Part shown: in pieces, positions 1,795 to 59,860 of the stretch | Numbering within the stretch: position 1 is the stretch's first letter | Layout: each line of letters opens with the position of its first letter | Assembly (NCBI GenBank): GCA_963829055.1 | Contig: CAWHHI010000011.1 | Location: 480,001-544,000, forward strand | Origin: an uncultured Gemmatimonadaceae bacterium | Lineage (GTDB): Bacteria > Gemmatimonadota > Gemmatimonadetes > Gemmatimonadales > Gemmatimonadaceae | DNA: 64,000 nt | Direction: 5' to 3' | Made by a program: the position numbers and the translations under genes | The notes under the pieces: model-generated | Databases searched by the model: none | What the model saw: the letters and a program-made list of their open reading frames with translations, nothing else | Told to the model about the DNA's origin: nothing

Positions 1795-2531
1795 GAGCGA
1801 GGCCGAATTCGGCCTGTCAGTTTCGAAGCCGGAGATACGTCACCACCTGGGTCCGCCTGCCGTACGTAGAGAGCCTGTCGACGGCGGAATCTACACTGAC
1901 CCGGCGGGGCACGGCACGGAGGAGATGCGGGCGGAATTCCGCACGAGGAGGCACCCGTCGGGAGGGGCTTTCCGTGCTCCGCACCGCACCTCCCCGTTAT
2001 GCCATTCTAACGTGCCCTTCGGTGGTGCCCTTCGGGGGAAGGTGACGCGCCCAACGTCAAAGCAGGGCGCGTTCCCACACCGCGAAACCGCGATTTCATG
2101 CGTTAGGCGCGTGGATTCGAACTCAAGGCTGAAGAACGCGACTCTTGACACGCCACGTCCGGCGCACGGCGGCGACAGGCGTTGGTGGAACGCCACACAG
2201 GAGGCAGTACAGAGGCAATGTGCCCGTGCGTGCCGCGGTGCTCAACGTCGCAGAACGCGTGAGTGGTCCGACCACCAATCATCATCGCTGGGATCGCGAG
2301 CGACGATCCGCCCGCGTTAGGCGGGCGCGCGACGCCACGTGTGCCCACGCAGCCGAACCTGGTGCGTCCGTGGACCAGCCCCGACAGCGCCGGCGCTGCA
2401 ATCGCTAGAATCTCCTAATGTCCGGCCAGACCCAGCCCAGACCATAGCGCGCGCCCGTCCCGGCATTACGTTTTTGTCGCAGGCCAACGCCGCTGTCCCG
2501 CGGCGCCCGTCGCACATCCGGGAGCCACCCG

Positions 2532-3741
2532 ATGGACACGACCACCACCGATTGTCCGCTCGCTGTCACGCTCGCGGCGGCCCTCCGCGAGCAGCGCGAC
2601 ATGCTCACGAGCCGTTGGCTGCTGCGCATCGCCGACCGCGTGAATCTGACGCCCAATCGGATCTTTCCATCGGACGACCTCATTGACCACGTGCCGCTGC
2701 TGCTCCTCGGCATCGCGGACTACATTGAGGATCCGGCGCGCCCCGTACTCGCGGAGACGCCCGTCATCGCGAAGGCCATGGAGCTCGGCGCGTTGCGTCA
2801 TACGCAGGGCTTCGACGAACATCAGCTGCTCAAGGAATACGAGATCCTGGGTGGCATTCTCTTTCAGTTCGTCGCCGATACCGTCACCGAGATCGGGACC
2901 GAGTGCACACCCAGTGAGTTGGTGACCTGTGCCAGCCGACTCTTTCAGGCCATCGCCGTGATCCAGCAAGCGACGACGACCCAGTTCCTCATGCTGGCGC
3001 GCGCGCAGATCACGGAGCGTGAGGATCGACTGCGCACGTTCAACCGCACGCTCACGCACGAGCTCCGGAATCGCATCGGCGCAGCGCTCGGTGCGGCGCA
3101 GATCATGGACATGCCCGACATCGACCCGAGCGAGCGGCAGCGATTGAACGACGTCGTGATGCGGAACGTCGAGAGCATGCGCGTGGTGCTCGACAACCTG
3201 CTCGTGCTCACCGGGATCCCGATCGACACGCGACAGCAGCGTCACGTGCACTTGCCGGAAGCGGCGCAGGAAGCAGCACGTCAGGTGCGCGCGGCGGCGC
3301 GAGCGAAGAACGTCGCGATTCGCGTCGACCCGCTGCTGCCGGCCGTCGAGGTGAGCGCGGCAGCGGTGGAGCTCTGCCTAACGAATCTGCTGGCGAACGC
3401 GATCAAGTACTCCGACCCCGACGCGAGCGACCGGTGGGTCGAGGTCCGCGGTCGCCTCGAAACGCGCGACGGCGAACCGACGGAAGTCATCGTCGAAGTC
3501 GTGGACAACGGCATTGGCGTGCCGCCCGAGCGCGCGGTCGCGTCTCTTCCAGCGCTTCTTCCGCGCGCACGAAGGCGCGATGCCCGACATCGAGGGCACC
3601 GGCCTCGGGCTCAGCATCATCCGCGATACGGTCGGCGGACTTGGCGGACGCGCGTGGGCCGAGTTTCCGGAGAAGGGATCGACGTTCGCGTTCTCGCTGC
3701 CGTGCCGGCGCGAGACCGATGCCGACGCGCTGCTGGCCTAA
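2532..3741 (+). CDS. Sensor histidine kinase with N-terminal RsbRD_N-like helical domain (frameshift near 3537)
   Basis: THELRNRI H-box, NLLANAIKY N-box, DNGIG G1; GTGLGLSI G2 in ORF 3514..3741; N-terminal LGALRHTQGFD pattern. Confidence 0.85.
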
Positions 3742-3772
3742 CGCCGCCAGCGGTTGGGCTGAACGCCCAGCG

Positions 3773-4223
3773 TCAGGGGTTGGGCGTTCGCACCGGCTCC
3801 CGATCCACCGAAACGCGATCGTCGTGGTGCACGCGCCACTCGCTCGCCGGCGCAGTCCCGGCCGCGAGCCGCTCATGGCTCACACCGCTCACTGGCTGAG
3901 CTGACGGCAAGTCGGCCGTCGGCCGTTGTCGGACAGCGAGCCAGACGAGCCAGAGCGCGAGTGGCGGTCCGATGAGCCACGCCATGATCGTCCCGAGTGG
4001 CGCCGAAGCGGCGAGCGTCTTCACGCCTTCTTCGACGACCGTGAAGTGGAAGACGGTGTTCTCGAATCCGGCCGTGATCGTGCCGTGGCCCTCTGGAAGG
4101 TGCGTGGCGCGCCACGACTGCGGGGATTGCCGGACCCAGCGCCACACCAGCGAGCCCGGCCCAGTACGCGGTCCAACTCGCGAGCAGCTGACCTGGACGC
4201 CACCGTCGTATCGAAAGCTCCAT
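3773..4223 (-). CDS. Hypothetical membrane protein (frameshift near 4118)
   Basis: N-terminal hydrophobic helix in ORF 3873..4223 joins a second helix WLIGPPLALWLVWL in ORF 3773..4261. Confidence 0.55.
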
Positions 4224-4284
4224 CGTGAGACCTCCGCGTTTCTCTCGCGCTTCACGCGCATATTACTCGCGTGTCACGCGCGTT

Positions 4285-5383: not shown

Positions 5384-5428
5384 GTGATGCGGGAAGTCTG
5401 CAGAGTCGTCAGCCCGAGCGGCGGCGTT

Positions 5429-5534
5429 GTCATCCCGAGGAGCAACAGCGACGAGGGATCTTCTCGAACGTCATCGTGGCCGGCCCTAGCTACGATACCA
5501 TCACAGGAGATCCCTCGCTGCGCTCGCGGATGAC
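5429..5534. repeat. REP-like palindromic element, family B (GTCATCCCGAG...GGATGAC)
   Basis: Inverted termini, inner GAGGGATC/GATCCCTC pair; spacer matches the reverse complement of the 35820-35930 copy. Confidence 0.75.
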
Positions 5535-5538
5535 AATC

Positions 5539-6366
5539 CTACCAGCGGCGCGCGAAGCCAGCGCCGACGAAGTAATCCGTATCGGCCCCGTTGAAGCCGA
5601 CGCCCGCGCGAACGTCCAGCTGAAAGTTTGGCGTCAGGCCCGCCGTGAGGCCCGCGTTCCCGTACGCGCTGCGCGACGCCCCATCGAGCCTCGGATCGAA
5701 GCCGAAGACCTCGGCGTACATGCCGTAGCGCTCGGTGAGCGACACGCCTAACGATCCACTCGCCGCCCACTCCATGTACCGCTGACTCTCCTCCACCCCC
5801 CACCTGGCGTTGAGATTCGCGCCGAACGAGAGACGCTCGCTGAGCGTCCAGCTCGTCGCGAGCTTTGCCTCGGGTTGCATCGCTTGCTGCCGGAACACGG
5901 CGCTGCCCGTCGGCACACTCGTCGCGGCGAGGAGCGACACCGAGGGGACAAAGGACGGTTTCTCCGGCCCATCGTGCAGCCGGACCTTCATCCCCACGGC
6001 CGCATCCTCGAAACCGTCCACGTCGCCGTCGGGCGACGTGATCGTCGAGTACGACCCGATGTCCAGCCGAAGCTCTGCGCGTTGAGCAACGCCAATCCGC
6101 ACCAACGCCTCACCGGCGGTGTTGATCGTGTACGCATTGATACGCGTGAGCGTGTAACCGCCCTCGAGTTGCACGCGTTTCGGCGCTACGGTTTCGACCG
6201 CCTCCGTGAAGTCCGGGCGATCGGACACGAGCGCGACCTCACCCGGTCGAGCGGTCGCGCAGCCAGCGCTGAACCCTAACGCGACGACGAACGCGACGTG
6301 GCGCGGGACGCCACCACGACCAAAAACACGACGCGTGTTGTGCGACTCGCGGTCGGTTGGGTTCAC
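5539..6366 (-). CDS. Outer-membrane beta-barrel 'transporter' (Phenol_MetA_deg-like)
   Basis: Lipoprotein-like signal (SAGC), DRPDFTE motif, alternating beta strands, C-terminal W; true start may lie ~25 codons downstream. Confidence 0.75.
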   Translation of the reverse strand: MNPTDRESHNTRRVFGRGGVPRHVAFVVALGFSAGCATARPGEVALVSDRPDFTEAVETVAPKRVQLEGGYTLTRINAYTINTAGEALVRIGVAQRAELRLDIGSYSTITSPDGDVDGFEDAAVGMKVRLHDGPEKPSFVPSVSLLAATSVPTGSAVFRQQAMQPEAKLATSWTLSERLSFGANLNARWGVEESQRYMEWAASGSLGVSLTERYGMYAEVFGFDPRLDGASRSAYGNAGLTAGLTPNFQLDVRAGVGFNGADTDYFVGAGFARRW

Positions 6367-8592
6367 CGGTCGACCAGCGATTCGGCCGGCGCGGCAACGA
6401 ACCCGAGCCTGACGGCGATCGCGCAGAGACGTGCATCCGCCAGGCGTTCCGTGTCAGGGAACGCGTCGTGAAAGCGAGTCTGCACGTCGAACGGGATGTG
6501 CAGTTGCTCCAGCTCGAACAGATCGAGCAGTGCCGCGACCCGTTCGATGTCAGCGTCACTCGAGTCTTCCCTCAATCGCGTAACCGCGTCGAGGAGCGCG
6601 CTCGTCAGCTTCGCGCTGGTCTCGCCCGCTGGTGAGATGGCGCTCGTCGGTCCCGAACGCCGCGGTCACGAGCCGACGACGAATCCCCTGCACCACCACG
6701 TCGCGCTGCCGTTCCGTCATCTCCGCGAGCGTGAGCTCGATCGGCGCATGTGGCGCCGAGTCTCGCGACGCGACGCGCACGTGCGCGATGACGCTCGATG
6801 GCGCGTGGTGGCCGGCTCCGTTTCCTGGTGCATTCCCCAGTGCGCTGGATGGAACGCCCGTCACGTCCACGGCGAACACCGAGCGCTCCCCGGTGCGGCG
6901 CTGCGTCACCGTGATCCCGTCGTCCGACGCCGCCACCTCGAGCGCCTTCGCGGTCGCACGCCATCGTTCGTCGTTAGGCGCGACGGCGTGCGCCGCAGCC
7001 ACCGAGCCTGCGAGCCGCGTTACCTGATCGATATGCGGCTTGGCCATCGTCAGATAGACATCGCGGCCGGTGCCGATGCCGGGATCGTTGCTCTGTGCGG
7101 TCGCGAGGCGAGCGAGGAGCGCATCCTCGAGCCGCGCGCCGTCCGGGCCCGCGAGCTCGATCGCCCGGGCCGCATATCGCAGCACCTCGATGGGCTCGAG
7201 GCCGCCAATGTCATCGAAGAACCACGCGCACGACGTGAAGATCCGCAGCGCACCGCGTTCCATCTCCAGCAAGGACTGGGGACTCGGGACCGGGGACTGG
7301 GAAACGTCGCCTCGTGCACGCGGCGCGATTCGCTCGGCCACCCATTGAGAGATGCGTTCGGGCGTTCCGACGACCTCGCCGTAGGCATCACGCACGGCCC
7401 ACGGGTCATCGAAGTAGCGGCGCGCCTCACGCTCATAGACCGCGTGAATGCCGTCGGCGAGCTCTGCGATCGCCTCGCGCAGCGGAGCGCGCCACGCCTG
7501 ACTCGTTCCCTGGTGCATGCGACAGCTGCAGTCCGATCGCCACCGCTCCACACCGTGCGCACAACTCCACGCACTCGGCGCCACGATCTCGACGTCATCC
7601 GTCGCCGGATGCTTCGCGAGATACGAGGCGTAGTTCCCGACGTCGACGTGCTTCGTCGCCTGCAGGTCGAGCACCACGCGCGCGAGCGCCATCTCCGAGA
7701 ACCGATGGTGGTGTCCGTACGTCTCGCCGTCGGTTGCCGCGGACACGAGGCGATGCCGCCCACGGGCATGGTCGGCTGGGTCCGCGATGGCGAGCATCTC
7801 GCCCGTCGTGAGCGGGCGAGTCCCGCCGTCGCTCTTGGGATCCGGCTCCCAGTGCGCGGCGCCGACCAGTCCGCCGTCACGCGGCGTGCGCCGTCGATCG
7901 CCACGCGCGAGCATGCGCTTCGCCCACACGTTCGCGTCCCGCAGCAGCCCACCGAACGCGATGCCGTGCGAGATGTCGCCGTCGTAGATGCACAGCGTGA
8001 TCGTGCGGCCGTTGCTCGTGGTATAGCGCCCGGGGTGTCCATCGTTAGGCACCGATTTCACCTGCCCCGGCGCCACGACCGTGAAGCGCATGCCTTCCTG
8101 CGCGAGCACGTCGAGGGTCTCGTCGTCCAGCGCGGTTTCCGGCAGCCACATGCCTTCGGGGTCCCGCCCGAACCGCCGACGAAAATCGGCGATCCCCCAC
8201 CGCACTTCCGTGACCTTGTCGCGGCGGCTACTCAGTGGAAGGATCGCGTGGTGATAGGGCTGCGCGATGGCGTTACCGTGGCCGAGCCGCGCGAGGCTCT
8301 TGCGGTCGGCGTCGAGAACGCGCGCGTACGTGTCCGGCGCCGCGTGCTCCAGCCACTCGAGCAGCGTCGGCCCGAAGTTGAAGCTGATGTACTCGAGGGT
8401 GTTGACGATCTGGCTGATGCGCCCGTCCGGCGCGAGCACGCGCGCCGCGACGACGGTGCGGTAGCTCTCCTGCTCGATGCGGGAGTTCCAGTCGTGGTGC
8501 GGCGCGGCCGACGCCTCGCGCTCGATCTCTTCGAGCCACGGGTTCTCGCGCGGCGGTTGATAGAAGTGGCCGTGAATGACGATCGAACGCAT
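6363..8592 (-). CDS. GH57-family DUF3536 domain protein (frameshift near 6635)
   Basis: IHGHFYQPPRENPW, GMWLPET, ATDGETYGHH, WSCAHGVERWRSDC, FTSCAWFFDD; C-terminus continues in ORF 6363..6575. Confidence 0.85.
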
Positions 8593-8665: not shown

Positions 8666-10402
8666 CTATCGTGATGCCACGATCCTGCCCGCCGTCCGCC
8701 CGTCCCGCCCGATTCCCGATTCCCGATTCCCGATTCCCGACAGCACCGCTTTCACCGACTCCAGCACATCCGGAAACACATCGTCCTGCGTCCGCAGCTC
8801 GAGCGCGACATTCGTGGCGCGCTGGAGGTCGCCGGAAGCGAGGCCGTCCTCGATCGCGTCGATCAGGCGATCGCACGCGTCGGCATGCCCGTTGAAGCGC
8901 TTGATACCGTAGTCCGTCACCGCGCCCGTCGAGATGATGAACTGCCAGTCCGAAGACTGCACGAGCAGCAGCTCGCGTGCAGCCTGCGCGAGCGCGTCGT
9001 ACGCTGACGGCAACTCGATCGCCTCGCGCGCCATCGTCCAGAACCGCTCCTCGATGGTCCAGATCCTCGGCCACGTCCAGGCCGTCTGGGCGTTGAGCCA
9101 CATGCTGAAATCGCCGTTCGCGCCCCATGATCCGGTCGCGAGCCGCAGGCCGGTTCTCGCGCGGAACGTGTCGAGGTGCGTCGAGGCTGTCGCCGGCCTC
9201 ACGTTAGGTTGCTCCCGCAGCGCACGGTATACGTTGCCGAGAAATTCCGGGCCCTCGTACCACCAGTGGCCAAACAGCTCCGTGTCGAACGGCGCGACGA
9301 CGACGCCTCGGCGATGCGCCGGGTGCGTCGCCGCGATCGTCGCCAGCAGGCTCGCGAAGTGCGCGGCGTGCGCGGATGTCATGGCACTCGCGGTTGGCGG
9401 GTCGTATGGCTCCTTCTGACCAAGGTCAACGCCATTGCCCGTGACGCGCCACAGCTTCAGCCCGCCCGGCCAGCGGATCTTGTGGAACTCGAGGTAGCGT
9501 CCGTCGCCCGGATAGCCCTGGAAACGACTCCACACCTGTGCCGACGACTCCGGATCGCGGATGAACGCCGCCACGGTCTCGGACGTGTACGCCGACGTCA
9601 CGCGATAGGCGCGATACGGCGTCCGTGTCGCCTCCCACTGCGCGTCGGCCGACGCGACGTGCTCCAGTTCATTCGCCACCACCTGCCCATAGAGGCCGAG
9701 TGGGCTGCCGGCCCGCGCCATGTGCGCGTCGGCGAAGAAGAACCGGAACCCCGCATCCGCGAGGTATTCCTCGATGCCCGGGCGCGGTCCGGTGTCCGGA
9801 GCGTTAGGCAGCGGCTTCCATGGGCCGCGCGGGCGATACGCGCACTCCGGCAGCCAGCACCCGCGCGGCGCTTGGCCGAAGAGCCGCTTGTGCTCGCGCT
9901 GTCCGACGTCGAGCTGGAGTTGAATGCTCTCGTCGCGCGCGAGGAGCGGCAGGAACGCGTGCGTCGCCGCGGACCCGATGATCTCGAGCCGGCCGCGCGC
10001 CTCGAAGTCGCGGAAGACCGAGATGATGTCGCCATCGATCGAACGGAACAGTGCGCGCAACCGCGTGAGCCGTTCGCGCCAGTAGTCGACGAGCGGAATC
10101 AGGTACGTATCGCCCGTTTCCCGAAGCGATGCGGGCGCCTCATCGCAATGCGTCAGGCGCTGCTCGAAGTACAGCTCGAGCTCCGCACGGAACGCGTCGC
10201 TCGCCAACTGGTTGGCGAGCACTGGCGTGAACCCGATCGTGACGGGCGCCGTGACGCCTTCGGCTTCCATCGCCCGCAGCGTTTCGACCAGCGGCAGGTA
10301 CGTGTCGATCGCTGCCTCGGTGAGCCAGTCGCTGCCATGTGGCCAGCGACCGTGATTCAAGACGTACGGCAGATGACTATGTAGAGCGAAAACGAAATCC
10401 AT
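8666..10402 (-). CDS. GH57 1,4-alpha-glucan branching enzyme (DUF1957 domain)
   Basis: HSHLPYV, WLPECAY, YLEFHK, PFDTELFGHWW, QSSDWQF motifs. Confidence 0.9.
   Translation of the reverse strand: MDFVFALHSHLPYVLNHGRWPHGSDWLTEAAIDTYLPLVETLRAMEAEGVTAPVTIGFTPVLANQLASDAFRAELELYFEQRLTHCDEAPASLRETGDTYLIPLVDYWRERLTRLRALFRSIDGDIISVFRDFEARGRLEIIGSAATHAFLPLLARDESIQLQLDVGQREHKRLFGQAPRGCWLPECAYRPRGPWKPLPNAPDTGPRPGIEEYLADAGFRFFFADAHMARAGSPLGLYGQVVANELEHVASADAQWEATRTPYRAYRVTSAYTSETVAAFIRDPESSAQVWSRFQGYPGDGRYLEFHKIRWPGGLKLWRVTGNGVDLGQKEPYDPPTASAMTSAHAAHFASLLATIAATHPAHRRGVVVAPFDTELFGHWWYEGPEFLGNVYRALREQPNVRPATASTHLDTFRARTGLRLATGSWGANGDFSMWLNAQTAWTWPRIWTIEERFWTMAREAIELPSAYDALAQAARELLLVQSSDWQFIISTGAVTDYGIKRFNGHADACDRLIDAIEDGLASGDLQRATNVALELRTQDDVFPDVLESVKAVLSGIGNRESGIGRDGRTAGRIVASR
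8707..8740. repeat. Tandem heptamer (CCCGATT)n overlapping the 3' end of the branching enzyme gene
   Basis: CCCGATT about 4.5 times; same unit at 12392-12424. Confidence 0.8.
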
Positions 10403-10523: not shown

Positions 10524-10536
10524 TTCAGTTCAACTG

Positions 10537-14952: not shown

Positions 14953-16881
14953 TCAGGCAGGCGGCGGCGCCTTCGTCGTATCCGCGCCGATCGTCCCCTT
15001 ACAGAAAACCTCCACCTGCTTCGCCGAGATGGGCTGGAGCTGCGTGAGGTAGTCCTGGTACTGCTTCACGGCTTCGGCCGCGACCTCCACACCCGCCGCG
15101 AGATTCGGCTGCGCGAACGCCAGCATGTCGAAGCCGAGCCGACTCAGTTCGCAGTCCTTCGTCTTTGGCGCCTCGGTGGCCGCGCTCTGCGCGACCGACA
15201 ACGCCGCCGCGCCCATCAGGAGCTTCGCCTGTGGCGAGTTCTTCACGCTGTCCGCCAGCGCGAGGAACCGCAACGCGAGCATGTAATCCGGGCGCATCTT
15301 CGTGCTGTTCGCCGCGCGGTACAACTGGTTGCCGCGGGCGAGCGCGAACTGCGCGATCAGCGCGCTGTCCTCGCCGACGGAGAGCGCGCGTTTGAGCGTC
15401 GCGAACGCGCTGTCGTTCTGCCCCAATTCCGCCTGGGCGCGCGCGAGCTGGATGTGCCCGTGCTGAATCGTGGAGTCGAGCGCCAGCGCCTCACGCATCA
15501 CGTCCACCGACTCCTCCGCCTTCCCGCGCGTCTTGAGGTCCTGCGACTGCATGATCTTGAACTCCGCGTTCTGCGGGAATGCCGCGAGACCACGCGTTAG
15601 GCCCTCGACCGCTTCGCCACGTACGAGCTGCACGTACATCGAGAAGATGCGCGGATCCTTCGGGAAGGCCTGCAGCCCGCGCGCCGCGACCTCGACCGCG
15701 CGCACCACGTCCCCATTGGACTTGTACGCGGTCGCCAACCGGAGCAGGAACGTCGAGTCCTTCATCGACAGCGAGTCGGTGGCGAGCAGGATGCCGCCGA
15801 TGCGCGTCGCTTCCTTCCACGACTTGTTCGCGAACAGCACCTGCCACCGGAGTCGCAACAGTCCCATGTGCTCCGGCGCGGCATCCGACAGCCGCGCCAC
15901 GAGCGGCTCGGCTTTCAGTGAGTTGCCGTCGAAGATCAGCGCGGAAACGACGCGCTCGCCGAGCGCGATGTCGGTCGTGTCGGCCGCTTGCAGTCGCAGC
16001 CACATCTCCGCTGCGCGATCCTTGTTCTTGAGGACGTCGTACGCCTGCGCCGCGCCCTCGAGCGCGTAAAAGCTCGCCGTGTCTACACGCAGCATCTCAC
16101 TCACGACGCCCAACACGGAATCAGCCGCGGTTCCAACCACGAGATGCGCGGCGAGCATGCATCGCCGAGCGAGCGTCGAGCGCGGGTAGAGCTTCACGCC
16201 TTCACGCGCCGCCTCGACTGCCTGAGCCGCTCGCCCGTCGCGGAGATGGTTCTCGCAGCGACGCTGCGGCGTGAGCTGTCGTCGCGCCTCGGTGACCGCG
16301 GCCGCCATTCGCGCTGCCGCACGCTCCGCATCAGGATCGATGGCGTCGGGGAGCGGCTGCTGCATGCGGACGTCGCGCGCGAGAATCAGGCGCGCGCTGA
16401 CGCGATAGCCCGCCGGCGTCTTGTCCACGGTGCCCATGAGGTACTCGTCCGCTCGCAGGTAGCGCGACAGCGCGCGCACCTGCGTCAGGTCGGGCACCAT
16501 ATCCGCTGGGAATCCGGCGTTGAACAGCGCCGTGGTCAGCGACTTCTCGTCGACGACCTCGAGATCGCGTTTGTTGCCCGCCTTCTCGACGCGTCCGCGG
16601 ATCTCGTCGGCGACCTTGTTGCCGACCTTCTTGTCAGCGCTCTTGAAGGGCGCGATGAGCAAGCCCTGTTGGGTGAACTCCTGCTGGCGTTGGGCGCCGA
16701 GGGGAGAGCCCGCCGGGGCTACGAGTGCCAGGAACAACGTCGCGACGGCCACAGCACGTATCGCGCGCCCAGAAACGCACCACTCCACCGGTGATCCTCG
16801 ACGAAAAGACAAGGCCGACCGTCCCCCGGCCGGCTCGACCGCCACGTCACATATGCGAACGTTAAATCGCCGGACGAACAA
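14953..16881 (-). CDS. Secreted TPR-like helical repeat protein, hypothetical
   Basis: Intact 642-codon ORF; signal-peptide-like AIRAVAVATLFLALVAPA...GAQ (true start probably near 16775); Ala/Leu-rich TPR-like helices. Confidence 0.7.
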   Translation of the reverse strand: MFVRRFNVRICDVAVEPAGGRSALSFRRGSPVEWCVSGRAIRAVAVATLFLALVAPAGSPLGAQRQQEFTQQGLLIAPFKSADKKVGNKVADEIRGRVEKAGNKRDLEVVDEKSLTTALFNAGFPADMVPDLTQVRALSRYLRADEYLMGTVDKTPAGYRVSARLILARDVRMQQPLPDAIDPDAERAAARMAAAVTEARRQLTPQRRCENHLRDGRAAQAVEAAREGVKLYPRSTLARRCMLAAHLVVGTAADSVLGVVSEMLRVDTASFYALEGAAQAYDVLKNKDRAAEMWLRLQAADTTDIALGERVVSALIFDGNSLKAEPLVARLSDAAPEHMGLLRLRWQVLFANKSWKEATRIGGILLATDSLSMKDSTFLLRLATAYKSNGDVVRAVEVAARGLQAFPKDPRIFSMYVQLVRGEAVEGLTRGLAAFPQNAEFKIMQSQDLKTRGKAEESVDVMREALALDSTIQHGHIQLARAQAELGQNDSAFATLKRALSVGEDSALIAQFALARGNQLYRAANSTKMRPDYMLALRFLALADSVKNSPQAKLLMGAAALSVAQSAATEAPKTKDCELSRLGFDMLAFAQPNLAAGVEVAAEAVKQYQDYLTQLQPISAKQVEVFCKGTIGADTTKAPPPA

Positions 16882-16941: not shown

Positions 16942-19900
16942 TCATCCGATCTCGACCACGACCTCGTGGCGTTGCCCATCGTCCACCAGCGGGATCGTCA
17001 GCTCCGCCCGATCCGCTCCATCGACCGTCACCCGCGTGACGTCCTGGTCGCGGCCAACTCTCGTGACGGTCACGGCATACGTGGACGACAGGTAGCGATA
17101 CTCCAGCGCGAACGACTTCCAGGCGCGCGGCACGCACGGCTCGATCGTCAGCGTCTCGCCGTGCTTCGTGAACCCGAGAATGGTCTCGAGGCCAACCCGG
17201 TACATCCACGACGCCGACCCGGTGTACCACGTCCAGCCGCCGCGCCCCAGATGCCCGGTGGCCGTGTACACGTCGGCAGCCACCACGTAGGGCTCTACCT
17301 TATACCTGCTCACGTCCTCCGGCGTCACCGAATGCGTGAGCGGATTGATCATCTGATACAGCTCGAAGGCGCGGTCGCCGTCGCCGGCCAGAGCGGTCGC
17401 GAGGACAGCCCAGAGCGCCGCATGGGTGTACTGCGCGCCGTTCTCCCGCACGCCAGGGAGATAGCCTTTGATGTAGCCCGGGTCGTGGACGGTCTTATCG
17501 AACGGCGGCGTGAGCAGCATGATCAGCCGCGCGTCGGGTCGCACGAGCCGCTCCTGCAGCGACGCCATGGCGCGCGCGCGCTTGTCCAGCTCTCCGGCGC
17601 CGGAGATCACGCTCCAGCTCTGCGCGATCGAGTCGATCTGGCACTCGTCATTCTCGGCCGAGCCTAACGGGGCGCCGTCGTCGAAGTAGGCGCGGCGGTA
17701 CCACGCGCCGTCCCACGCCGCCTCGTTGGCGGCTTTCGCGTACAGCTCCGCCGATACGCGCAGCTCGCCGGCGGACGCGCCGTCGCCCTGGCTGTCGCAG
17801 TGATCGGCGAACGCGCGCAGGGTGTCGTTGAGGAACCAGGCGAGCCACACGCTCTCCCCACGCCCCTCGATGCCGACGCGGTTCATGCCATCGTTCCAGT
17901 CGCCGACGCCGATGAGCGGCAGCCCGTGCGCACCGACGGTGCAGGCATGGCGCAGCGCCCGCAGGCAGTGCTCGTAGAGCGATGCCGTCTGCGTCGGATA
18001 CGTTAGGCAGGTCGTACACCTCGTGCTCGTGCGGCTCGAGCGGCCGCATCTCGATGAACGGCACGAGCTCGTTCAGGATCGTCGGCGTCGCCTGTCGTCC
18101 GGATGTAGTGATCCACGACGAACGGGAGCCACACGAGATCGTCCGAGAAGCGCGTGCGCGTACCGCGGCCGGTGTGCGCGTGCCACCAGTGCTGCACGTC
18201 GCCCTCGACGAACTGCCGCGCCGCCGATCGCAGGATGTGCTCGCGCGCGATGGCCGGATCGTGATACACGAACGCCATGGCGTCCTGCAGCTGGTCGCGG
18301 AAGCCGAACGCGCCGCTCGACTGATAGAACGCCGATCGCGCCCACATGCGACACGAGAGCGCCTGATAGAGCGACCAGCGATTGATCATCGCGTCGAACG
18401 TGGCGTCCGGCGTTTTCACCGTGATCGTCCCGAGGCGGTGCGCCCAGTCGGCGATGGTGGCGTCGATCGCCGCGTTCGCGGCGCCCGTGCCGCCATACCT
18501 TCCGATCAGCGTGCGCGCCTCGTCCACGCCACGGGCGGCGCCCAGCAGCACGATGACGTCGCGTGTTTCGTTAGGCGCGAGCGAGATCGTGCGCCTGCAG
18601 TGCGGCACACGGGTCGACGGCGGCGCCCACGGTCTCGCCGAGCGCCGCGCCGTCTGCCAGTCCAATCGGCCGCTGCAGGTCACCGTTCCGGCCGATGAAC
18701 TCACGCCGATCGGCCGTGTAGCCGGCGAGCGGCTCGCTGATCCAGCTGAACGCGACGCGGTCGGCGAAGCTGGCGTCGAAGTAGTTCGACGCGAAGATCG
18801 CCTGCGTCTCGCGGTCGAACGTCGTCACGATCTGGTGCTGCGTGTGCTCGCGCATGACGCCCAGCGCCCACTCGACGAAGCTCGTCATGGTCAGCGCAGC
18901 GGGTCGACCGCTCCGATTTGTCAGGCGAAGACGCGTGAGCTTGACCGGATCGGTGGGTGCCATGCTGACGGTGAGCTCACTGGCGATTCCGCCGCGCTCG
19001 TGCAGGAACGTGGTGAATCCCGCACCGTGCCGCACGGTGTACTGAGAGCTGTCGCGCGCGATGGCCGGCGTGGGCGACCACAGCGCGCCCGATCGCATCA
19101 CGCAGGTAGACGATCTCGGTGCACGGGTCGCTCACCGGGTCGTTGTACCACGGCGTTAGGCGGAAGAAGTAGCTGTTCTCGACCCAGGCAAACCCACCAC
19201 CGCGCTCGGTGACGACGAACCCCGCCTGCGGATTCGCGATGACGTTCGACCACGGCGCCGGCGGCAGGGCGTCGCCGGTGAGGGTGATTTCGTAGTCCAG
19301 GTCGGGCGTGAGGCCGTGTTTCAGCACCGGCGACTTGGGCGCCGGGAACGGGGAACCGGGAACCGAGGCTGCTCGCTGTTTGCTGCGTGCAGCACCGGTT
19401 CCTGGTTCCCCGTTCCCGGTTCCCGCTTTGTCTCCTCGTCCGAAATCAGGAAGCTCGAAGCTCTCGGCGAGATCGAGCGCGGCGTCGCGCGCATACGCTT
19501 TCGCGCGCGCCAGCACCGTGCTCACCACGCCTTCGCCGCTCACGTCGCTGACGGTTCGTGGGTCCCACGCACCGTTCCCCGAATCTCGATTCGAGAAGAT
19601 CGACAGGCGACGCGGTCGCTCCGGCTCGTCAGGCGGCTGCTCCTCGACCTCCGGCGCGTCGAGCACGCGCCCGAGCCCGAGCCCGTCACAGACGACGTGA
19701 ACGCGCGCCGTCGTGCGCACCAACCGCAACACATCGGGCATCAGCAGGTCGGCGCGTCTGATGAAGATGCCGCCCGGCTTGTCCGCGAGATGCGTTTCGC
19801 TCGATCCCATCACCATCGCGAGCAGTTGGTCGGCAAGCTCCTGTTGATAGGACGGTGCTCGCGTGATGAGAATGACGAGATCCACCGTCATTCCCTTGAG

Positions 19901-37290: not shown

Positions 37291-37932
37291 TCGTGTGCCG
37301 GCACCAGACCCGCTCGCGTCGCTCATCGACGAGCTCCGCGAGCCCGTTGTGGGCGACCCGGCGGCGAAGCGTCGGGTGATGGAGTTGGTTCGCGAATGCC
37401 CTGTCCCCGTCGCGACCGTCGGCGCTCGCGTACACGCGCTCCCGACGCGCTCCCGCGGCATTCGCCGCGATCCGCAAGCTGCGCGGCGAGCGGAGCGAAT
37501 TCCGACGCAGCGCGACCGCGAGCACGCTCGCGACCGCCGCCGGGATCGCCCTCCTCATGGCCGTCGGCAATCAGGACCGAGCGACGCCGCGCCTGACGCC
37601 CGCGCGCCGCGCCGTCATCATCGGCGATAGCGTTGCCTCCGTCGCGTCGGCGATCCGGGACACGCTTCGCATCGTCCAGTTCATCCTCACGGCACCTGCC
37701 GCGTCACGGGTGGCGCTCGCAGGCGACTTCAACGGCTGGGACACGCGCTCCGTACCGCTCACGCGCGAGACGCGAGACGGACGTTGGGCCGTCACGCTCG
37801 CGCTCGCGCCGGGCCGCCACCAATTACGCCTACGTCGTCGACGACACCCAGTGGGTGCGCGACCCCGTCGGCACGCCGGCCGAGCCTAACGAGCTGACGC
37901 CGCCGCGCTCGGTCGTCATCATCAACCGTTAG
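37283..37932 (+). CDS. Putative anti-sigma-like membrane protein with C-terminal CBM48 / isoamylase early-set domain (2-3 frameshifts)
   Basis: Overlaps the sigma stop; hydrophobic TLATAAGIALLMAVG; VQFILTAPAASRVALAGDFNGWD, GRWAVTLALAPG, YAYVVDDTQWVRDP. Confidence 0.75.
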
Positions 37933-37990
37933 GCGCCGTCCGAGGTCCGCATCGTCGCGGAACGATTCCGGTCGGCGACGATCGCGGCTC

Positions 37991-43676: not shown

Positions 43677-43684
43677 CGCGTTGT

Positions 43685-45799: not shown

Positions 45800-47599
45800 A
45801 TGATCGCAGAGTCCTTCACCGCGACCATCGCACTCATCGGTATCGTCATTCTCGTCGCGTCGCTGCTGTCGGGCGCCGTCGAGCGGACTGGCATGCCGCA
45901 GGTCGCGATCTTTCTCCTCCTCGGCGCCGTACTCGGCCCGATCGGGCTGAACCTCTTCGACCTCGCCCTGGATTCGCCCGCGCTCCACGCGATCGCGACG
46001 CTCGCGCTCGTGCTGGTGCTGTTCAGTGACGCGATCTCCATCGACCTGCGAGAAGTCAAACGCAATTCCCGCCTCGCGCTGCTCGTGCTCGGACCGGGGT
46101 CGCTCATTCCAGCAGTGCTCATCGCCGTCGCGTCCCGGTACCTGCTCGGCCTCCACTGGGCGGCATCCGCGATCGTCGGCGCCGCACTCGCGTCAACCGA
46201 TCCCGTCCTGCTTCGCGGGCTGCTGCGCCGGCAGGACGTGCCTGCGCAGGCACGGCTCGCGCTGCGGCTCGAGAGCGGGATGAACGACGTGGTGCTGCTG
46301 CCCATCGTCGTGTTGAGCATGCTGTTCCTTCCTGGCCTGCCTGCTGGCGTGCATCCAAGCGCAGCCCGGCTCGCACTCGGGCTCCTCATCCTCGGACCGG
46401 GCGCAGGCGTGTTGGCCGGGCTGGTGGGCATCACGCTGCTGGATCGTATTCGCAAGAGCGTCGGCGTCCGACGAGACTACGAATCGCTGTACGCACTCGG
46501 CGTCGCGTTCACGGCGTTCGCCGCCGCCGAGGCGGCAGGTGGCAGCGGATTTCTCGCGGCGTTCGCGGCAGGAATCACCGTTGCTGCTCTCGACGTGGAG
46601 CTGTGTGACTGCTTCCTGGATTACGGCGAAGCAACGGCGGAAATGTTCCTGCTGCTCACGTTCGTGGCGTTCGGCGCGTCGCTGATCTGGCAGGGGCTCA
46701 GCATCGTGAGCTTGCGGAGCCTGACGTTCGCGTTCTTCGCGCTCATCATCCGCACCCTCGTGCTGTTCCCGGTGCTGAAGCGCGCCGGCCTGGATCGGCG
46801 GAGTCTGCGCATTGTGGCGTGGGTCGGCCCGCGTGGACTCAGCACGCTGTTGCTGGTCCTGCTCCCGGTGTTCGCCGGCATCCCAGATAGCGCACAATTG
46901 TTCACGATCTGCTGCCTCGTCGTGCTCCTGTCCGTGCTTCTGCACGGCAGCGCGATCGGCCTGATCGTGCGTCGGCCTCAGCCCGCGCCGGGCGCGGCCA
47001 TCAATCCTGCTTCCGCGTTAGGTGCATTGGCGCCGGGCGCGCCGCCACTGGCAGCGAAAGCCCCGACGCCAGCGCTCGAGGTTATCCCGCCACTCGCGAC
47101 AGAGGCGGCGCTCGCGGCAAAGCCGGCAACCGAGACACGGGATGCGGTCGCGGCGAAACCAGCGCTCGACGGAACACCGCAGGACACCGCCGCTGAGCAG
47201 GCCGAGCCGCCGATCCCCGAGAAGATCACCATCGACGAGATGCAGGCGATGCAGAGCGCCGGCGAGACGCCACTGGTGCTCGACGTTCGGACGCAACGCA
47301 CCTACGAAGCCGATCCGTTCATTGCGCGTGGCGCGGTGCGCTTACCGCCCTTGGATGCGGTGCGCCTCGCGACGGCGCACCGCATCCCGTGGAAGGCGAC
47401 GCTCGTCGCCTACTGTGCCTGAAAGAACGAAGAGACAAGCACCCGTGTGGTGCGAGAGCTGAGACGAGCCGGTTGGAAGCGAGCCCGCGCCCTCAAGGGC
47501 GGGTGGGCCGAGTGGCGTGCGCGCAACCTGCCGGTCGACCCGGCGGAGCCTAACGAGTTGGAGCCTCAGTCGCCCTCGGCGCGACCGAACATCAGGTGA
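45800..47599 (+). CDS. NhaP-type (CPA1) cation:proton antiporter fused to a C-terminal rhodanese domain; predicted Sec at TGA 47420-47422
   Basis: LFSDA, ASTDPV, ESGMND, GPRGLST; linker; LDVRTQRTY...ARGAVRL...VAYCA-TGA-KNEETSTRVVRELRRAGWKRARALKGGWAEWRARNLPVD, next stop at 47597-47599. Confidence 0.8.
47439..47453 (+). promoter_or_regulatory. Candidate bacterial SECIS apical hairpin
   Basis: GCACC-CGTGT-GGTGC; 5-nt loop starts 21 nt after the TGA, with G at loop position 2 followed by T. Confidence 0.5.
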
Positions 47600-50861: not shown

Positions 50862-51010
50862 CGTTATCTCCTTGACCGGCCGGGGCCGACGTTAGGCCGC
50901 CGGCCGCATCATCCTGGGTGACGGTTCCAGACTTCCCGCGGACGCGGCGTCTGTCCCGTTAGGTGTACTACGAACTTCTAACGCAACTGTTTCTTCCAAC
51001 CGATCCGCAA

Positions 51011-51271
51011 TCAGACGTGCCCATCGATCGCTTCACGGTAACACTCCGGGCACATCACCTCGCCCGATTCGAGCCGCACCATCTCCCGCTCCTCGTGCGC
51101 GCCATGCAGCGCGCACGTTAGGCTCACCGCGCGTTCGATCTGCTTGCGATTGCGCGATTGCTCGAGCACTCGTCCCGGCGCGGTGTAGTGACGCACGACG
51201 AAGACGACGAGCGTCACCGCCACCACGAGCAACGCCACGAACATCACGCCTTCGATGATGATCGCGTTCAT
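51011..51271 (-). CDS. Small membrane-anchored protein with CxxH...CxxC motif
   Basis: N-terminal TM helix; CALH and CPEC; 4-bp overlap with the flotillin gene. Confidence 0.7.
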   Translation of the reverse strand: MNAIIIEGVMFVALLVVAVTLVVFVVRHYTAPGRVLEQSRNRKQIERAVSLTCALHGAHEEREMVRLESGEVMCPECYREAIDGHV

Positions 51272-52700: not shown

Positions 52701-53378
52701 CTACGCGCCGAGATATGTGACTGTGCAGCGATTGCGCGTGTCGTCGACTGCCTCGATGCGCAGGCGATCGCCCGCTCGCACCTTCCGCGCAGTCGCTCGT
52801 TCCGCAGGATTCAGCGTCGCCAGGAGCTGCACCACCTGACCGTCGAGCTCGACGGCGACGAGGCCGTGGCCGTTCGCATCGAAGCTCGTGACCGCGCGCG
52901 CCTCGTCCGTCACGACACTCTCGAGTGTGACAGCCGGGGACGAGGCGAAGCGGAACAGGAATCGCCAGAGCGGCGCGACGAGCAGCCACTCGAACGCCAC
53001 GCCGGCGCCTAACGCGGCAATCAGCAGAGCGGGCTCGGCGAGCACCGGACGCAGCAGCAGACCTGCCGCACCGAATCCGACGAGCATGCTGAACGCGACG
53101 CGTGGCTGCAGGAGAGAAAGGACGCGCGAGGCACCGGAGGCACGCGCGCTTCCTGCGCGGCCGGTCGATGCGACCACGTGGGCCGCGCCTCCATGATCAT
53201 GACCGGCATGACCGCTGTGCCCGGGGCCGCCATGACCGTGGCTGCCGTGACCGTGCCCATGAGCGTGCCCGTGAGCGGCATGCCCGTGACCTGCGTGCGT
53301 CGAGTGTGCGAAACCGCTCAACGCCATGACGCCGAGACCAACACTCCCGAGCGTCAGGCCGAACGTGTAGGGGTCCAT
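52701..53378 (-). CDS. NfeD/YqiJ-like membrane protein with His-rich loop
   Basis: TM helices, His/Gly-rich segment, C-terminal OB-fold-like GLVAVELDGQVVQLLA...GDRLRIEAVD; upstream of flotillin. Confidence 0.75.
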   Translation of the reverse strand: MDPYTFGLTLGSVGLGVMALSGFAHSTHAGHGHAAHGHAHGHGHGSHGHGGPGHSGHAGHDHGGAAHVVASTGRAGSARASGASRVLSLLQPRVAFSMLVGFGAAGLLLRPVLAEPALLIAALGAGVAFEWLLVAPLWRFLFRFASSPAVTLESVVTDEARAVTSFDANGHGLVAVELDGQVVQLLATLNPAERATARKVRAGDRLRIEAVDDTRNRCTVTYLGA

Positions 53379-54457: not shown

Positions 54458-54466
54458 AGTGGTTTC

Positions 54467-56890: not shown

Positions 56891-57922
56891 ATGCGCGTCA
56901 TCGTCATCGCGGCGTTGTCTCTGCTGCCCGCCATTCCTCTGCTCGGGCAGACCCCGACAAGCTCCGCCGCCGTCCACCGCGGCCTCGAGTCGATCACCGC
57001 GGCCGATGTGAAGCGACGCATTGCGATCATCGCCGACGATTCGATGGGCGGACGTGACACGCCAAGCCGCGGGCTCGACGCCACGGCACGCTACATTGCG
57101 TCGGAATTTCAACGTTTCGGCCTGACACCGGGCGGCGACAGCGGCACGTTCATTCAGCGGTATCCCATCCCGGGAAGTCGCGAGGGCCGACCGAGCGGGG
57201 CGTCGCGGACGGCGCCTAACGTTGTCGGTGTGCTCGAAGGGTCCGACCCGGTCCTCAAGAACGAGTACATCGTGCTTTCCGCCCACATGGACCACGTGGG
57301 CATTGGCGCACCCGTGGACGGCGACTCGATCTACAACGGCGCCGATGACGACGCGTCAGGCACAACGGGTGTCATCGAACTGGCGGAAGCGTTGAGCATG
57401 CCCGGCGCCCGCCCCAAACGCTCCGTCGTGTTCCTCACCGTGAGCGGCGAGGAGCACGGGCTCTGGGGCAGCGCCTGGTTCAGCGAACACCCCGTCGTAC
57501 CGATGTCGCAGGTGGTGGCGGATCTGAACATCGACATGATCGGCCGCAACTGGAAGGACACCATCGTCGTGATCGGCAAGGAGCACTCCGACCTGGGCGC
57601 AACGCTCGACCGCGTGAATCGCGCGCATCCCGAGCTGCGCATGAAGGCGATCGATGACATTCGGCCGGAGGAGAACTTCTACTTCCGGTCCGACCACTAC
57701 AACTTCGCGCGGAAGGGCGTGCCGATTCTGTTCTTCTTCAATGGCACGCACCCGGACTATCACGGGCCTAACGACGAGCCGGACCGCATCGACGCCGAGA
57801 AGGAATCGCGCATCGTACGCCTCGTGTACCTGATCACACAGGAAGTAGGTGACGCGCCGGCGCGTCCCGCGTGGAACCCGGCCAGCTACAAGCGCATCGT
57901 GCGCCCGCAGACGCGCGAGTGA
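56891..57922 (+). CDS. M28 family metallopeptidase
   Basis: Signal peptide, SAHMDHVG, NGADDDASG, SGEEHGLWGS, NIDMIG, RSDHYNF, DYHGPND. Confidence 0.93.
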   Translation: MRVIVIAALSLLPAIPLLGQTPTSSAAVHRGLESITAADVKRRIAIIADDSMGGRDTPSRGLDATARYIASEFQRFGLTPGGDSGTFIQRYPIPGSREGRPSGASRTAPNVVGVLEGSDPVLKNEYIVLSAHMDHVGIGAPVDGDSIYNGADDDASGTTGVIELAEALSMPGARPKRSVVFLTVSGEEHGLWGSAWFSEHPVVPMSQVVADLNIDMIGRNWKDTIVVIGKEHSDLGATLDRVNRAHPELRMKAIDDIRPEENFYFRSDHYNFARKGVPILFFFNGTHPDYHGPNDEPDRIDAEKESRIVRLVYLITQEVGDAPARPAWNPASYKRIVRPQTRE

Positions 57923-58295
57923 CGAGCCTGATCGCCGCACGTACAGCGGCTGCCGCAGGCGCCGCCGCACCGAGTGTTGCCAGAACTAACGCGGTCGTAA
58001 GCCGGGTGGCTCCCATGTAATGCACACTCCGATCAAGGGAGAAGAACCGGACGCGATCGTGCCACTTGCTCCTCTTCCAAAGCTCGATCGTACGACGAAC
58101 GGGTCGCGTTATCCTGGGTGGGAGGGAACGCGACTCATCCTTGGGCGAGAGAATCTTACTCAGATCGGGCGAACGGCAAAGCCCGGCAGCCGAGGACAAT
58201 CACCAATAGCGTTGCCAGCCCGGGCAGCGCATACTACCGGGCCGCAGCAGCCGTGATTCCGCAGCGACTCTCCCGAGCCCTAACGCCAAGCCTCG

Positions 58296-58661
58296 ATGTC
58301 TTCCGTCAGCTTCTTTCGCTGGTCCGACCTTCCCGAGGAGCGTTTGTCGCCGCTGCTCGGGCGCAAGCTCATCACCGGTAGCCGGATGATGCTCGCGCAC
58401 GTGTATCTCAAGAAGGGATGCATTGTTCCCAAGCACAATCACGAGAACGAGCAGTTGACCTACATTCTCGAGGGCGCGCTACGCTTCTCGATCGGCGAGG
58501 ATGGAAGCGAGACGGTCGACGTGCGGGCGGGAGAGGTGCTGCACATTCCCTCGTTCGTCTGGCACCAGGCCGAGGCGCTCGAGGACACGCTCGACGTGGA
58601 CGTGTTCAGTCCACCGCGTCAGGACTGGATCGACAAGACGGACGCGTACCTTCGGCGTTAG
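58296..58661 (+). CDS. Cupin domain protein
   Basis: PKHNHENEQ, IPSFVWH, DVFSPPRQDW. Confidence 0.9.
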   Translation: MSSVSFFRWSDLPEERLSPLLGRKLITGSRMMLAHVYLKKGCIVPKHNHENEQLTYILEGALRFSIGEDGSETVDVRAGEVLHIPSFVWHQAEALEDTLDVDVFSPPRQDWIDKTDAYLRR

Positions 58662-59068
58662 GCGCGGCGGCGAATGGCGTGGCGGATGGCGGCGGCGATG
58701 CCCACCGCCACGCCGACCCCGATCATCAGCAGACCGAGCGACGACTGCGCGCTGAAGTAGTCGGCGCGCTGTACGTACGACGTGACGCCGGCAGGCAGTG
58801 TCTGCGTGCCGTTCGCGAGCGACGCGAGGCCGTTCCGCGCGAGCAGGAACAACGTGGTGCCGGCGACGATCGTGAGCATCGAGAGCGCATCCCACAGTCG
58901 GTCGGCGGAGTGCACGACACTGGCGGCGCCGTGCGGGCCACGCGGCTGAACGAACTCGATGTGTGCCGGGACTCCGAGCGGTGTATCCACGCGTGCCTCG
59001 CGATGACGGTTCCAGTACCTGTCTCGACCTACCTCATGCGATGACGCGTGACCGGGCCCGGATGGCAC
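58658..59068 (-). CDS. Small membrane protein, hypothetical (start may be 58989)
   Basis: Two hydrophobic helices in the C-terminal half. Confidence 0.5.
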   Translation of the reverse strand: MPSGPGHASSHEVGRDRYWNRHREARVDTPLGVPAHIEFVQPRGPHGAASVVHSADRLWDALSMLTIVAGTTLFLLARNGLASLANGTQTLPAGVTSYVQRADYFSAQSSLGLLMIGVGVAVGIAAAIRHAIRRRA

Positions 59069-59206
59069 TCAGGTGCGAGTGCTGTTGATAGCAGGCGATT
59101 CCGGCCTCGATTGCAGATTGGCAAAGCCGCGTGACGGCGAGGCCGTCGTTGCCAATTCTGGCAATACGGCCTGCATCGCCTGCTCAACAGCTGACGCTCG
59201 CCTCCA

Positions 59207-59860
59207 CTAGGGCTTGCTCCGGAGCATCTCCGCGAACTTCCGCTTCCACTCGTCTTTCATCGCCGAGACACGGACGCCCCTCCCCGCCCGCTTCGCCATT
59301 CCCATGAGCCCCAGCGGCGATGGGTGCGTGATCTGGTGATACGCAATGTCCGGATCGTCGCGGAGTCCGAGGTGCGTCCCGAGCAGCCAGTCCGCGGTCT
59401 TGCCAAGGACGATCACGCTGTGCAGTCCGCGCCGCCGAGCTTTCGCGAGCTCCGCGCGCACGCGACGCACATTTTCAGGGCTGCTCATCTCGGCTTTTGT
59501 CGGCGCGCGGAAGTGCTCACCATCGTCCGTCGGGCAGACGGGATACGCGTTCGACAACGCGACGTCGCTGACGACGGGTCGGATCCCGGCCTCGACGAGC
59601 GCCGCACCATCCCACCGCACCTGGTCGAGCGGTCGGGTGAAGCGAACCCGATCTTCGGCCTCCAGCGCCTCGTACAACGGGCGACCGGCACGATCACCGA
59701 AGAACGGGATCTTCGACTTGTCGGCCCCGTTAGGCCCGGGTGCTTCGCCGAAAATGATCGCGGACACAGCCCCCTTGGCGGGGAAGAACGCGGGGACACG
59801 CGTACCCAGGATGCGTCCCTTTGGTGATGCGGATCGCCTGGCCTTCGCTACAGTGACCAT
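59207..59860 (-). CDS. Uracil-DNA glycosylase superfamily protein
   Basis: IFGEAPG..GA...IPFFGDRAG motif A, SNAYPVCP, IVLGKTA, HPSPL motif B. Confidence 0.8.
   Translation of the reverse strand: MVTVAKARRSASPKGRILGTRVPAFFPAKGAVSAIIFGEAPGPNGADKSKIPFFGDRAGRPLYEALEAEDRVRFTRPLDQVRWDGAALVEAGIRPVVSDVALSNAYPVCPTDDGEHFRAPTKAEMSSPENVRRVRAELAKARRRGLHSVIVLGKTADWLLGTHLGLRDDPDIAYHQITHPSPLGLMGMAKRAGRGVRVSAMKDEWKRKFAEMLRSKP

Follow-up and report, generated by a model that had tools for sequence, protein, structure and literature searches.

A genome-wide octamer of Gemmatimonadaceae that matches an integron attC end as a possible uptake-sequence-like tag

The stretch of DNA analyzed here, 64,000 nucleotides from an uncultured Gemmatimonadaceae bacterium (GCA_963829055.1, contig CAWHHI010000011.1, positions 480,001 to 544,000; hereafter the window), raises the question of why a single non-palindromic octamer, GCCTAACG or, on the other strand, CGTTAGGC, recurs so often within its genes. 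The window holds 38 exact copies (16 of GCCTAACG and 22 of CGTTAGGC), or one per 1.5 kb, at the positions where a first-pass annotation had counted them by hand; its chance expectation of 2-3 copies was too high, since dinucleotide shuffles of the window contained 0.87 copies on average and never more than 5. The span is a sample of a genome-wide pattern, in which the octamer is written into genes by silent substitution and kept there. We tentatively suggest, by analogy with known systems, that it may be an uptake-sequence-like tag spread by molecular drive.

The source genome (G000; 7.78 Mb in 20 contigs, 86% complete) carries 5,004 copies, which lie on all 20 contigs at 4.8-8.0 per 10 kb, and the octamer is the top-ranked one of this genome, 49-fold over an order-2 Markov model. 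Its flanks show no conservation beyond codon periodicity. With a simple gene model made for this analysis (about 9,600 segments, 77% coding), 3,406 copies were coding, compared with 81-116 in synonymous-codon shuffles; the 35-fold enrichment thus persists under the codon-aware null model for which the first-pass annotation had called. In the four open frames, 59%, 23%, 19%, and 11% of the amino-acid-compatible sites are filled by the octamer, 1,440 of the 2,901 TTA codons fall within it, and it supplies 127 of 584 TAA and 131 of 1,340 TAG stops. Dipeptides occur about as often as expected (Leu-Gly 1.05; Pro-Asn 1.40 versus 1.28 for Asn-Pro), and, together with the synonymous shuffle, this led us to reject codon or amino-acid bias as the cause. 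On the coding strand, CGTTAGGC has odds ratios of 146-250 versus 61-71 for its complement, a difference that saturation may distort. The octamer is also present in the ribosomal-protein operon, and its density is halved in the gene decile of lowest GC3 (3.2 versus about 6.9 per 10 kb), although GC3 is a mere proxy for recent acquisition and any slowly gained word would show the same drop. Nearly identical DNA comes mainly from soil and rhizosphere runs.

The silent origin of the copies was seen both in congeners and across the family. In 254 kb of the source genome aligned to five congeners at 77-80% identity, with relatives pooled and sites not independent, 71 of the 117 ungapped copies were intact, compared with 21% for random octamers. 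Where the amino acids were unchanged, 61 of 81 copies were intact and 6 further ones had become variants, against a background in the same alignments of 54% identity at four-fold codons; rare codons were kept in 101 of 151 cases within motif-type contexts and in 96 of 466 outside. For the family we surveyed 201 genomes and called those with at least 25 copies per Mb rich and the others poor. At four invariant Ala/Pro-Leu-Gly sites of RpoB, compared in 53 genomes, TTA-GGC was found in 32 of 85 cases from rich genomes and in 0 of 120 from poor or outgroup genomes. The RpoB copies are pure substitutions, and TTG remnants are not in excess. Because of these RpoB sites and the conservation among congeners, we conclude that synonymous substitution creates the octamer and that it is actively maintained; old inheritance and repeated gain at few available positions both fit.

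The octamer is likewise present in other assemblies, a point on which the first-pass annotation had made its claim depend. All six congeners tested carry 2,500-5,100 copies, Gemmatirosa kalamazoonensis KBS708 has 30 copies in the first 50 kb of its finished plasmid 1, versus 0.99 expected, and three window copies compared in four independent public runs were intact in 9 of 12 cases. Single-base insertions in the window at 12983, 18081, 18593, 19094-19095, 25019, 26028, and 27797 are missing from the contigs of other public runs, and most frameshifts of the window are insertions of this type. The genes for the glucan synthase-like protein, the phosphorylase, and the TonB receptor were probably split by assembly errors and are not pseudogenes. 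Two pieces of the source assembly are free of the motif and look mis-joined: G000:C19:1-10000 (GC 0.53-0.56), which carries three genes 67-79% identical to those of the Verrucomicrobiota genome G219 described below, and G000:C6:5440-55037, a desert of 49.6 kb with a GC of 0.70. Octamer density can serve as a binning check.

Within the window, 26 copies are coding, 5 lie at gene edges, and 7 are non-coding according to our gene model. The four copies said to provide stop codons (3739, 37930, 43674, and 58659) do so, and the contexts G-A-P-L-G-S at 17662 and F-R-L-T-P-W at 19154 were confirmed, both read on the minus strand. The number of one-mismatch copies had been underestimated at about a dozen, as there are 75; 20 of these are ACCTAACG, CCCTAACG, TCCTAACG, GCATAACG, GCCTAACA, or GCCTAACT, and the remainder are background-type words. 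The features are as follows.

2101..59735, no strand: span with the 38 exact octamer copies, assessed by shuffle and genome counts
2101..2108, minus: copy outside called genes
2315..2322, minus: copy outside called genes
3376..3383, plus: copy in a histidine kinase gene, nGC-CTA-ACG frame
3736..3743, plus: copy giving the TAA stop (3739) of the kinase's HATPase tail, 3382-3741
5746..5753, plus: coding copy, nCG-TTA-GGC frame
6972..6979, minus: coding copy, CCT-AAC frame
8043..8050, minus: coding copy, CCT-AAC frame
9802..9809, minus: copy in a GH57 branching-enzyme gene, CCT-AAC frame
15595..15602, minus: copy in a TPR protein gene, CTA-ACG frame
17662..17669, plus: copy in the GH94 domain of a cyclic glucan synthase-like gene (Pro-Leu-Gly)
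18001..18008, minus: copy in a frameshifted part of the cyclic glucan synthase-like gene
18569..18576, minus: copy in a frameshifted part of the cyclic glucan synthase-like gene
19154..19161, minus: coding copy (Arg-Leu-Thr)
20123..20130, minus: coding copy, CTA-ACG frame
21023..21030, plus: coding copy, GTT-AGG frame
23187..23194, minus: coding copy, CTA-ACG frame
23910..23917, plus: coding copy, TTA-GGC frame
24533..24540, minus: coding copy, CCT-AAC frame
27878..27885, plus: copy in a TonB-dependent receptor gene, TTA-GGC frame
30713..30720, minus: copy in a histidine kinase gene; intact in 4 of 4 public runs
31584..31591, minus: coding copy, polymorphic (intact in one run, active variant in two, inactive variant in one)
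32004..32011, plus: copy in a histidine kinase gene; intact in 4 of 4 public runs
34639..34646, plus: copy in a sodium:solute symporter gene, TTA-GGC frame
35342..35349, minus: coding copy, CCT-AAC frame
37884..37891, plus: copy inside ORF 37633-37932; rare close pair, 43 bp to the next copy
37927..37934, minus: copy giving the TAG stop (37930) of ORF 37633-37932
38612..38619, plus: copy at or near the end of a MacB/FtsX permease gene
39109..39116, minus: coding copy, CTA-ACG frame
42961..42968, minus: copy in a DHDPS-family gene, TTA-GGC frame
43671..43678, plus: copy giving the TAA stop (43674) of ORF 42390-43676
47548..47555, plus: copy outside called genes
50890..50897, minus: copy outside called genes
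51116..51123, minus: copy outside called genes
53007..53014, plus: coding copy, TTA-GGC frame
57214..57221, plus: copy in an M28 peptidase gene, CCT-AAC frame
57766..57773, plus: copy in an M28 peptidase gene, CCT-AAC frame
58656..58663, minus: copy giving the TAG stop (58659) of ORF 58296-58661
59728..59735, minus: coding copy, CCT-AAC frame

The window also contains REP-like hairpin repeats at 40-165, 5426-5536, and 19336-19431, which are common to the congeners, have core 11-mers that occur 378-685 times in the genome, and are unrelated to the octamer.

The copies avoid one another. Only 69 pairs in the source genome lie less than 100 bp apart, compared with a plateau of about 330, and the four orientation classes are equally depleted (29 of 1,197, 26 of 1,198, 41 of 1,337, and 36 of 1,250 pairs below 150 bp), whereas 24 control octamers show the opposite, clustering. 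The pair correlation fits 1-exp(-d/200 bp), ±17 bp, and the exclusion length in G219 is 118±28 bp; the exclusion is gradual, and neither periodic peaks nor a hard core were found in it. Spacing is more even than random (Fano factor 0.80). No replichore polarity was found against GC skew (406/453 and 659/638), which is a proxy in an assembly of 20 contigs; the absence of strand polarity noted at first pass is borne out. The earlier view of a genome-wide, selected, non-polar DNA signal is backed by the enrichment, synonymous shuffle, conservation, RpoB, and skew tests.

Mutual exclusion is also an independent read-out that defines the active motif. The variants ACCTAACG, CCCTAACG, GCATAACG, GCCTAACA, and GCCTAACC occur near exact copies at 0.36-0.45 of expectation, whereas GCCGAACG, GCCTGACG, GCCTCACG, GCCCAACG, and GCCTACCG show no exclusion (1.02-1.09). 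We rejected GCCTGACG as an active variant because its value is 1.02, although it is 3-fold enriched; the depletion of some variants in the enrichment test may be inflated by the null model. The inferred active logo is (G>A>C)-C-(C>A)-TAAC-(G>A>C).

The trait is scattered over the family and beyond it. It is bimodal, with 77 of the 201 genomes rich, across 33 of 77 genera, of which one is mixed; four unpublished genomes (G013, G055, G056, and G154) enter the family tallies only. An RpoB tree (FastTree) was built from 22 rich, 28 poor, and 3 outgroup genomes, after 7 genomes gave no match and G007 was dropped as partial. Many of its deep nodes are weak, and it requires 11 changes of the trait, compared with a mean of 17 and a minimum of 10 in 500 shuffles; rich and poor genera adjoin within well-supported clades. 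Among 119 genomes of the phylum outside the family, a tally that includes two unpublished genomes used only there, genus g111 of a sister family is the only one rich on both strands (181-726 copies), and G339 is borderline and strand-skewed. A spaced-pair scan of 9 of 64 parts of GTDB gave 119 loci, 80 of them with flanks. Extra copies numbered 154 in 173 kb around 31 loci titled Gemmatimonadota, 204 in 196 kb around 33 titled Verrucomicrobiota, and 8 in 93 kb around 16 others. Alignments of at least 500 bp to the source genome were obtained for 23 of 32 loci titled Gemmatimonadota, compared with 3 of 33 titled Verrucomicrobiota and 3 of 16 others, and on this basis the source organism most likely belongs to the Gemmatimonadaceae. 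The Verrucomicrobiota genomes G219 (titled Chthoniobacterales) and G220 contain 2,254 and 2,494 copies, and 5 of 80 genomes drawn from the order of G219 are clearly rich, with one borderline. G219 has its own dialect, GCCTAACGA, which accounts for 862 of 1,060 copies in 2 Mb.

The word also matches a part of integrons, whose attC sites have the core consensus R'' RYYYAAC / R' GTTRRRY. Letter for letter, the octamer is the R'' box plus one base of the integrons of these lineages. In members of the order that are poor in the motif, attC arrays begin with GCCTAACG and finish with GTTAGGC, the attC sites beside intI genes of the family have starts including GCCTAACG, GCATAACG, ACCTAAC, and GTCTAACG, and those of the source genome mostly start with RCCTAACG. 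The sites beside two intI genes of G219 all start with RYCTAACGAG, with the same further A as in the dialect of that genome, and the active variants ACCTAACG, GCATAACG, and GCCTAACA are attC ends in the family too. We infer that the match is not due to chance; a receptor may be tuned to cassette ends, or cassette ends may have been shaped by the receptor. The octamer copies differ from an attC core site in that they are solitary, with neither L boxes nor a partner arm, are intragenic, occur in both orientations, and do not track IntI.

Considering these properties, we suggest, with reservation, the uptake-like tag as the best explanation. Silent codon changes have written the octamer into genes, and it is a genome-wide word under selection; a sequence-specific receptor presumably reads it on double-stranded DNA, most probably at uptake and as part of the competence machinery. 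Fragments carrying the octamer would recombine preferentially, and the word would thereby spread by molecular drive, as is the case for the uptake sequences of Neisseria and Haemophilus. The preference of the receptor may be tuned to, or descend from recognition of, the integron cassette end, which would account for the near-identical words of the two phyla. Among the three options that the first-pass annotation had offered, an uptake-like tag fits best, while unproven; a nucleoid-protein site is still viable, and HIP1-like methylation is disfavored.

The pattern resembles those of the uptake signal sequence (USS) of Pasteurellaceae and the DNA uptake sequence (DUS) of Neisseriaceae. Like these, the octamer is non-palindromic, occurs about once per kb on both strands at silent intragenic positions, arises by point mutation, is evenly spaced, may be low in new DNA, has one favored orientation in frame, shows redundancy of close copies, and is accompanied by competence genes. 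According to PMC7811141, a second USS within 100 bp of the first does not raise uptake, USS are low in newly acquired DNA, and 23% of USS have a neighbor within 100 bp; PMC2346458 describes one orientation as favored in frame. PMC1939737 and PMC7811141 confine known uptake sequences to two families, Pasteurellaceae and Neisseriaceae; HIP1 is a debated further case (PMC13756078).

The distribution of competence genes is in part consistent with this interpretation. ComEC was found in 73 of 77 rich genomes and in all five Verrucomicrobiota genomes reached via motif-bearing loci, and the source genome has type IV pilins and a ComEA-like gene. ComEC was found in none of 11 genomes of the genera g18, g54, and g73, whose representatives form one RpoB clade, all poor and sister to a rich genus; this absence is likely a single loss of competence.

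Several observations weigh against the uptake-like tag. ComEC is also present in most poor genomes (111 of 124). No sequence-specific receptor was found, either with the ComP_DUS profile (PF16732), which matched 0 of 5 genomes and, being silent in its control, 0 of 14 controls as well, or in a cross-phylum screen of 2.0 of the 3.8 Mb of G219 (53%) against the predicted proteins of the source genome. The screen gave 724 matches, 692 of them referenced; 267 had at least 44% identity, of which 247 were scanned with Pfam and 20, situated in the ribosomal-protein cluster, were left out, and the remainder were read by eye among the matches listed. No gene from it tracked the octamer, with a HerA-like gene not profiled. 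With 8 bp and no AT-rich flanks, the octamer is shorter than the DUS and USS. There is no 3' bias of copies within genes, and only 4 terminator-type inverted pairs within 40 bp were found among the 5,004 copies; such terminators are a common secondary feature of USS and DUS and not part of their core definition. Unlike USS and DUS, a near-identical octamer occurs in two phyla, equals an integron site, and is dense in some phages, at 1.0-2.1 copies per kb in a search biased toward dense contigs, above the 0.64 of the source genome. The genome-wide logo also differs from that of attC, as GTCTAACG is a common attC start and is not enriched genome-wide, and one of the three copies compared across runs is polymorphic.

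Viral density above that of the source genome is more easily explained by a benefit inside the cell. The octamer could be bound there by a DNA-handling protein whose action reaches a few hundred bases either way, such as a nucleoid organizer, a repair or topology factor, or a self-mark guarding DNA from a nuclease; each region would need one site, and phages would gain from carrying it. We consider this account rather unlikely, but it is consistent with the orientation-independent redundancy over 120-200 bp, with the presence of the octamer in the ribosomal-protein operon and on a megaplasmid, and with the scatter over the tree and phyla, which fits a mobile gene. It is also consistent with the viral contigs. 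Three viral scans (40, 122, and 60 loci), in which the search favors dense contigs, revealed several whose copies are dispersed over both strands at 0.4-2.1 per kb. Tailed-phage structural genes carry 16 copies in 14 kb of L200 and 31 in 17 kb of L410; terminase and portal genes occur in both and in L338, and a predicted endolysin of L187 is 59% identical to a protein of the source genome. Pooled viral loci showed no exclusion (20 observed versus 19), in a pool that is mixed and search-biased.

However, the shared DNA-related candidates for such a protein failed profiling. A type IB topoisomerase (TopIB) was rejected as the reader because 56 of 77 rich and 73 of 124 poor genomes carry it and there are near-complete rich genomes that lack it, and Ku because the corresponding counts are 67 of 77 and 77 of 124 and one rich genus lacks it altogether. 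A PD-(D/E)XK-like nuclease-like protein, 67% identical across the phyla, turned up in none of 200 family genomes and lies in the mis-joined low-GC piece. The exclusion is gradual, without the hard core or periodicity mentioned above, and an intracellular protein leaves the attC match unexplained. The source genome has two bacterial TopIB genes (C4 at about 51 kb and C19 at about 86 kb), and the family occurs in 129 of the 201 genomes.

Strand-biased viral matches were rejected as dispersed octamers since they proved to be attC arrays. In the IMG/VR contigs L370, L363, L387, L341, and L372, attC-type sites flank small genes, and full sites were read for L370, L363, and L387. In L345 and L369 (IMG/VR, GC 0.42-0.43), a repeated octamer-containing element precedes small genes on one strand, in 14 and 7 copies. 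The L345 element is not attC-shaped, and the element of both contigs may be a phage promoter or repeat.

It might also be proposed that the integron machinery itself, whether IntI, an IntI-derived protein, or a host cofactor, reads lone R boxes and so selects or drives the octamer, for instance if the boxes are favored sites for recombination in the genome or anchors in cassette making. This proposal, which we regard as distinctly improbable, draws on the identity with the R'' box, the dialect shared with the attC sites of G219, the active variants that are attC ends, the stop codons that the octamer supplies, and the presence of integrons in both the source genome and G219. However, IntI, profiled on the first 10 candidates per genome at E <= 1e-50, occurs in 50 of 77 rich versus 74 of 124 poor genomes, and within the densest genus in just 1 of 5, although metagenome-assembled genomes can miss it, and IntI was rejected as a sufficient or necessary reader because its presence does not track richness. 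Poor genomes have the same attC sites. No stand-alone IntI N-terminal domain of a shared form was found in 5 rich genomes, and bioRxiv 10.1101/2022.09.11.507474 gives the genomic target consensus of IntI as just GWT. Inverted pairs resembling attC (plus/minus at 40-140 bp) are not in excess in the source genome, where only 22 copies match the attC left-arm pattern, and the copies are lone boxes; that the RpoB copies are pure substitutions and that GTCTAACG is not enriched also disagree with the proposal.

The integron loci of the source genome have some features of their own. At about 208 kb of C20 (L005:1429-2406, minus strand), an IntI-like protein scores 266 bits with TIGR02249 (cut-off 265), and its gene points toward its attC array, not away. 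Its catalytic Lys seems to be missing, and Arg takes the place of the first His in HxxR. Another N-terminal piece of IntI is located at C4:2922-3170. Both full and half attC sites are scattered over C20 (97-207 kb and 885-890 kb) and C10 (179-190 kb), away from the intI-like gene, which suggests dispersed or decayed cassettes.

A HIP1-like role, in which the motif is tied to a methyltransferase and spreads via methyl-directed repair or methylation-dependent transformation, is very unlikely. HIP1 of cyanobacteria (GCGATCGC) resembles the octamer in size and density, in being iterated thousands of times, and in being conserved and evenly spaced, and PMC13756078 links HIP1 to transformation. However, HIP1 is methylated by DmtA/DmtC and is palindromic, and the present octamer is not a palindrome. 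The single-molecule real-time (SMRT) methylome of G. kalamazoonensis, whose plasmid carries the octamer, lists only RGATCY, ATGCAC, and CCAGN7TCA, which are m6A motifs, and not the octamer (PMC3974934). No C5 methyltransferase was found in the source genome, G061 (100% complete), or G219, which are three of five rich genomes, and no type I N6 methyltransferase was found in the source genome; PF01555-type enzymes lay outside these searches.

Chi and KOPS are short, non-palindromic, over-represented octamers of genome-wide abundance, which the present word resembles in length and number. A signal of this kind for a directional translocase is scarcely credible here and was rejected, because there is no polarity against GC skew and because opposite-orientation pairs are as depleted as same-orientation ones, and such orientation-blind redundancy is not the product of a one-way reader. 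Despite the insertions and mis-joined pieces of this assembly, we give practically no credence to errors of sequencing or base calling, or to codon or amino-acid usage, as the source of the pattern, in view of the congeners, the finished replicon, the independent runs, the synonymous shuffle, and the dipeptide counts.

Literature searches on the word, the taxa, and the concepts, with most subscription journals outside their coverage, found no paper describing the octamer. Whatever reads it shapes codon use strongly, since half of the TTA codons and about a fifth of the TAA stops lie inside it. One cultured strain carries the octamer, and relatives without it are natural controls. If abundant soil lineages carry a tag as dense as the known ones, self-biased DNA exchange would reach into soil as well, and the identity of the tag with the attC end, including the lineage-specific extra base, would bear on cassette recruitment by integrons and on the origin of attC. 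We further speculate, although we think it unlikely, that two soil phyla share a horizontally moving uptake receptor which recognizes cassette ends and fishes cassettes from soil DNA, with the side effect that genomes and phages are rewritten with lone attC cores. If this is true, the shared receptor would define a new family of uptake sequences and provide a direct link between natural transformation and the recruitment of integron cassettes.

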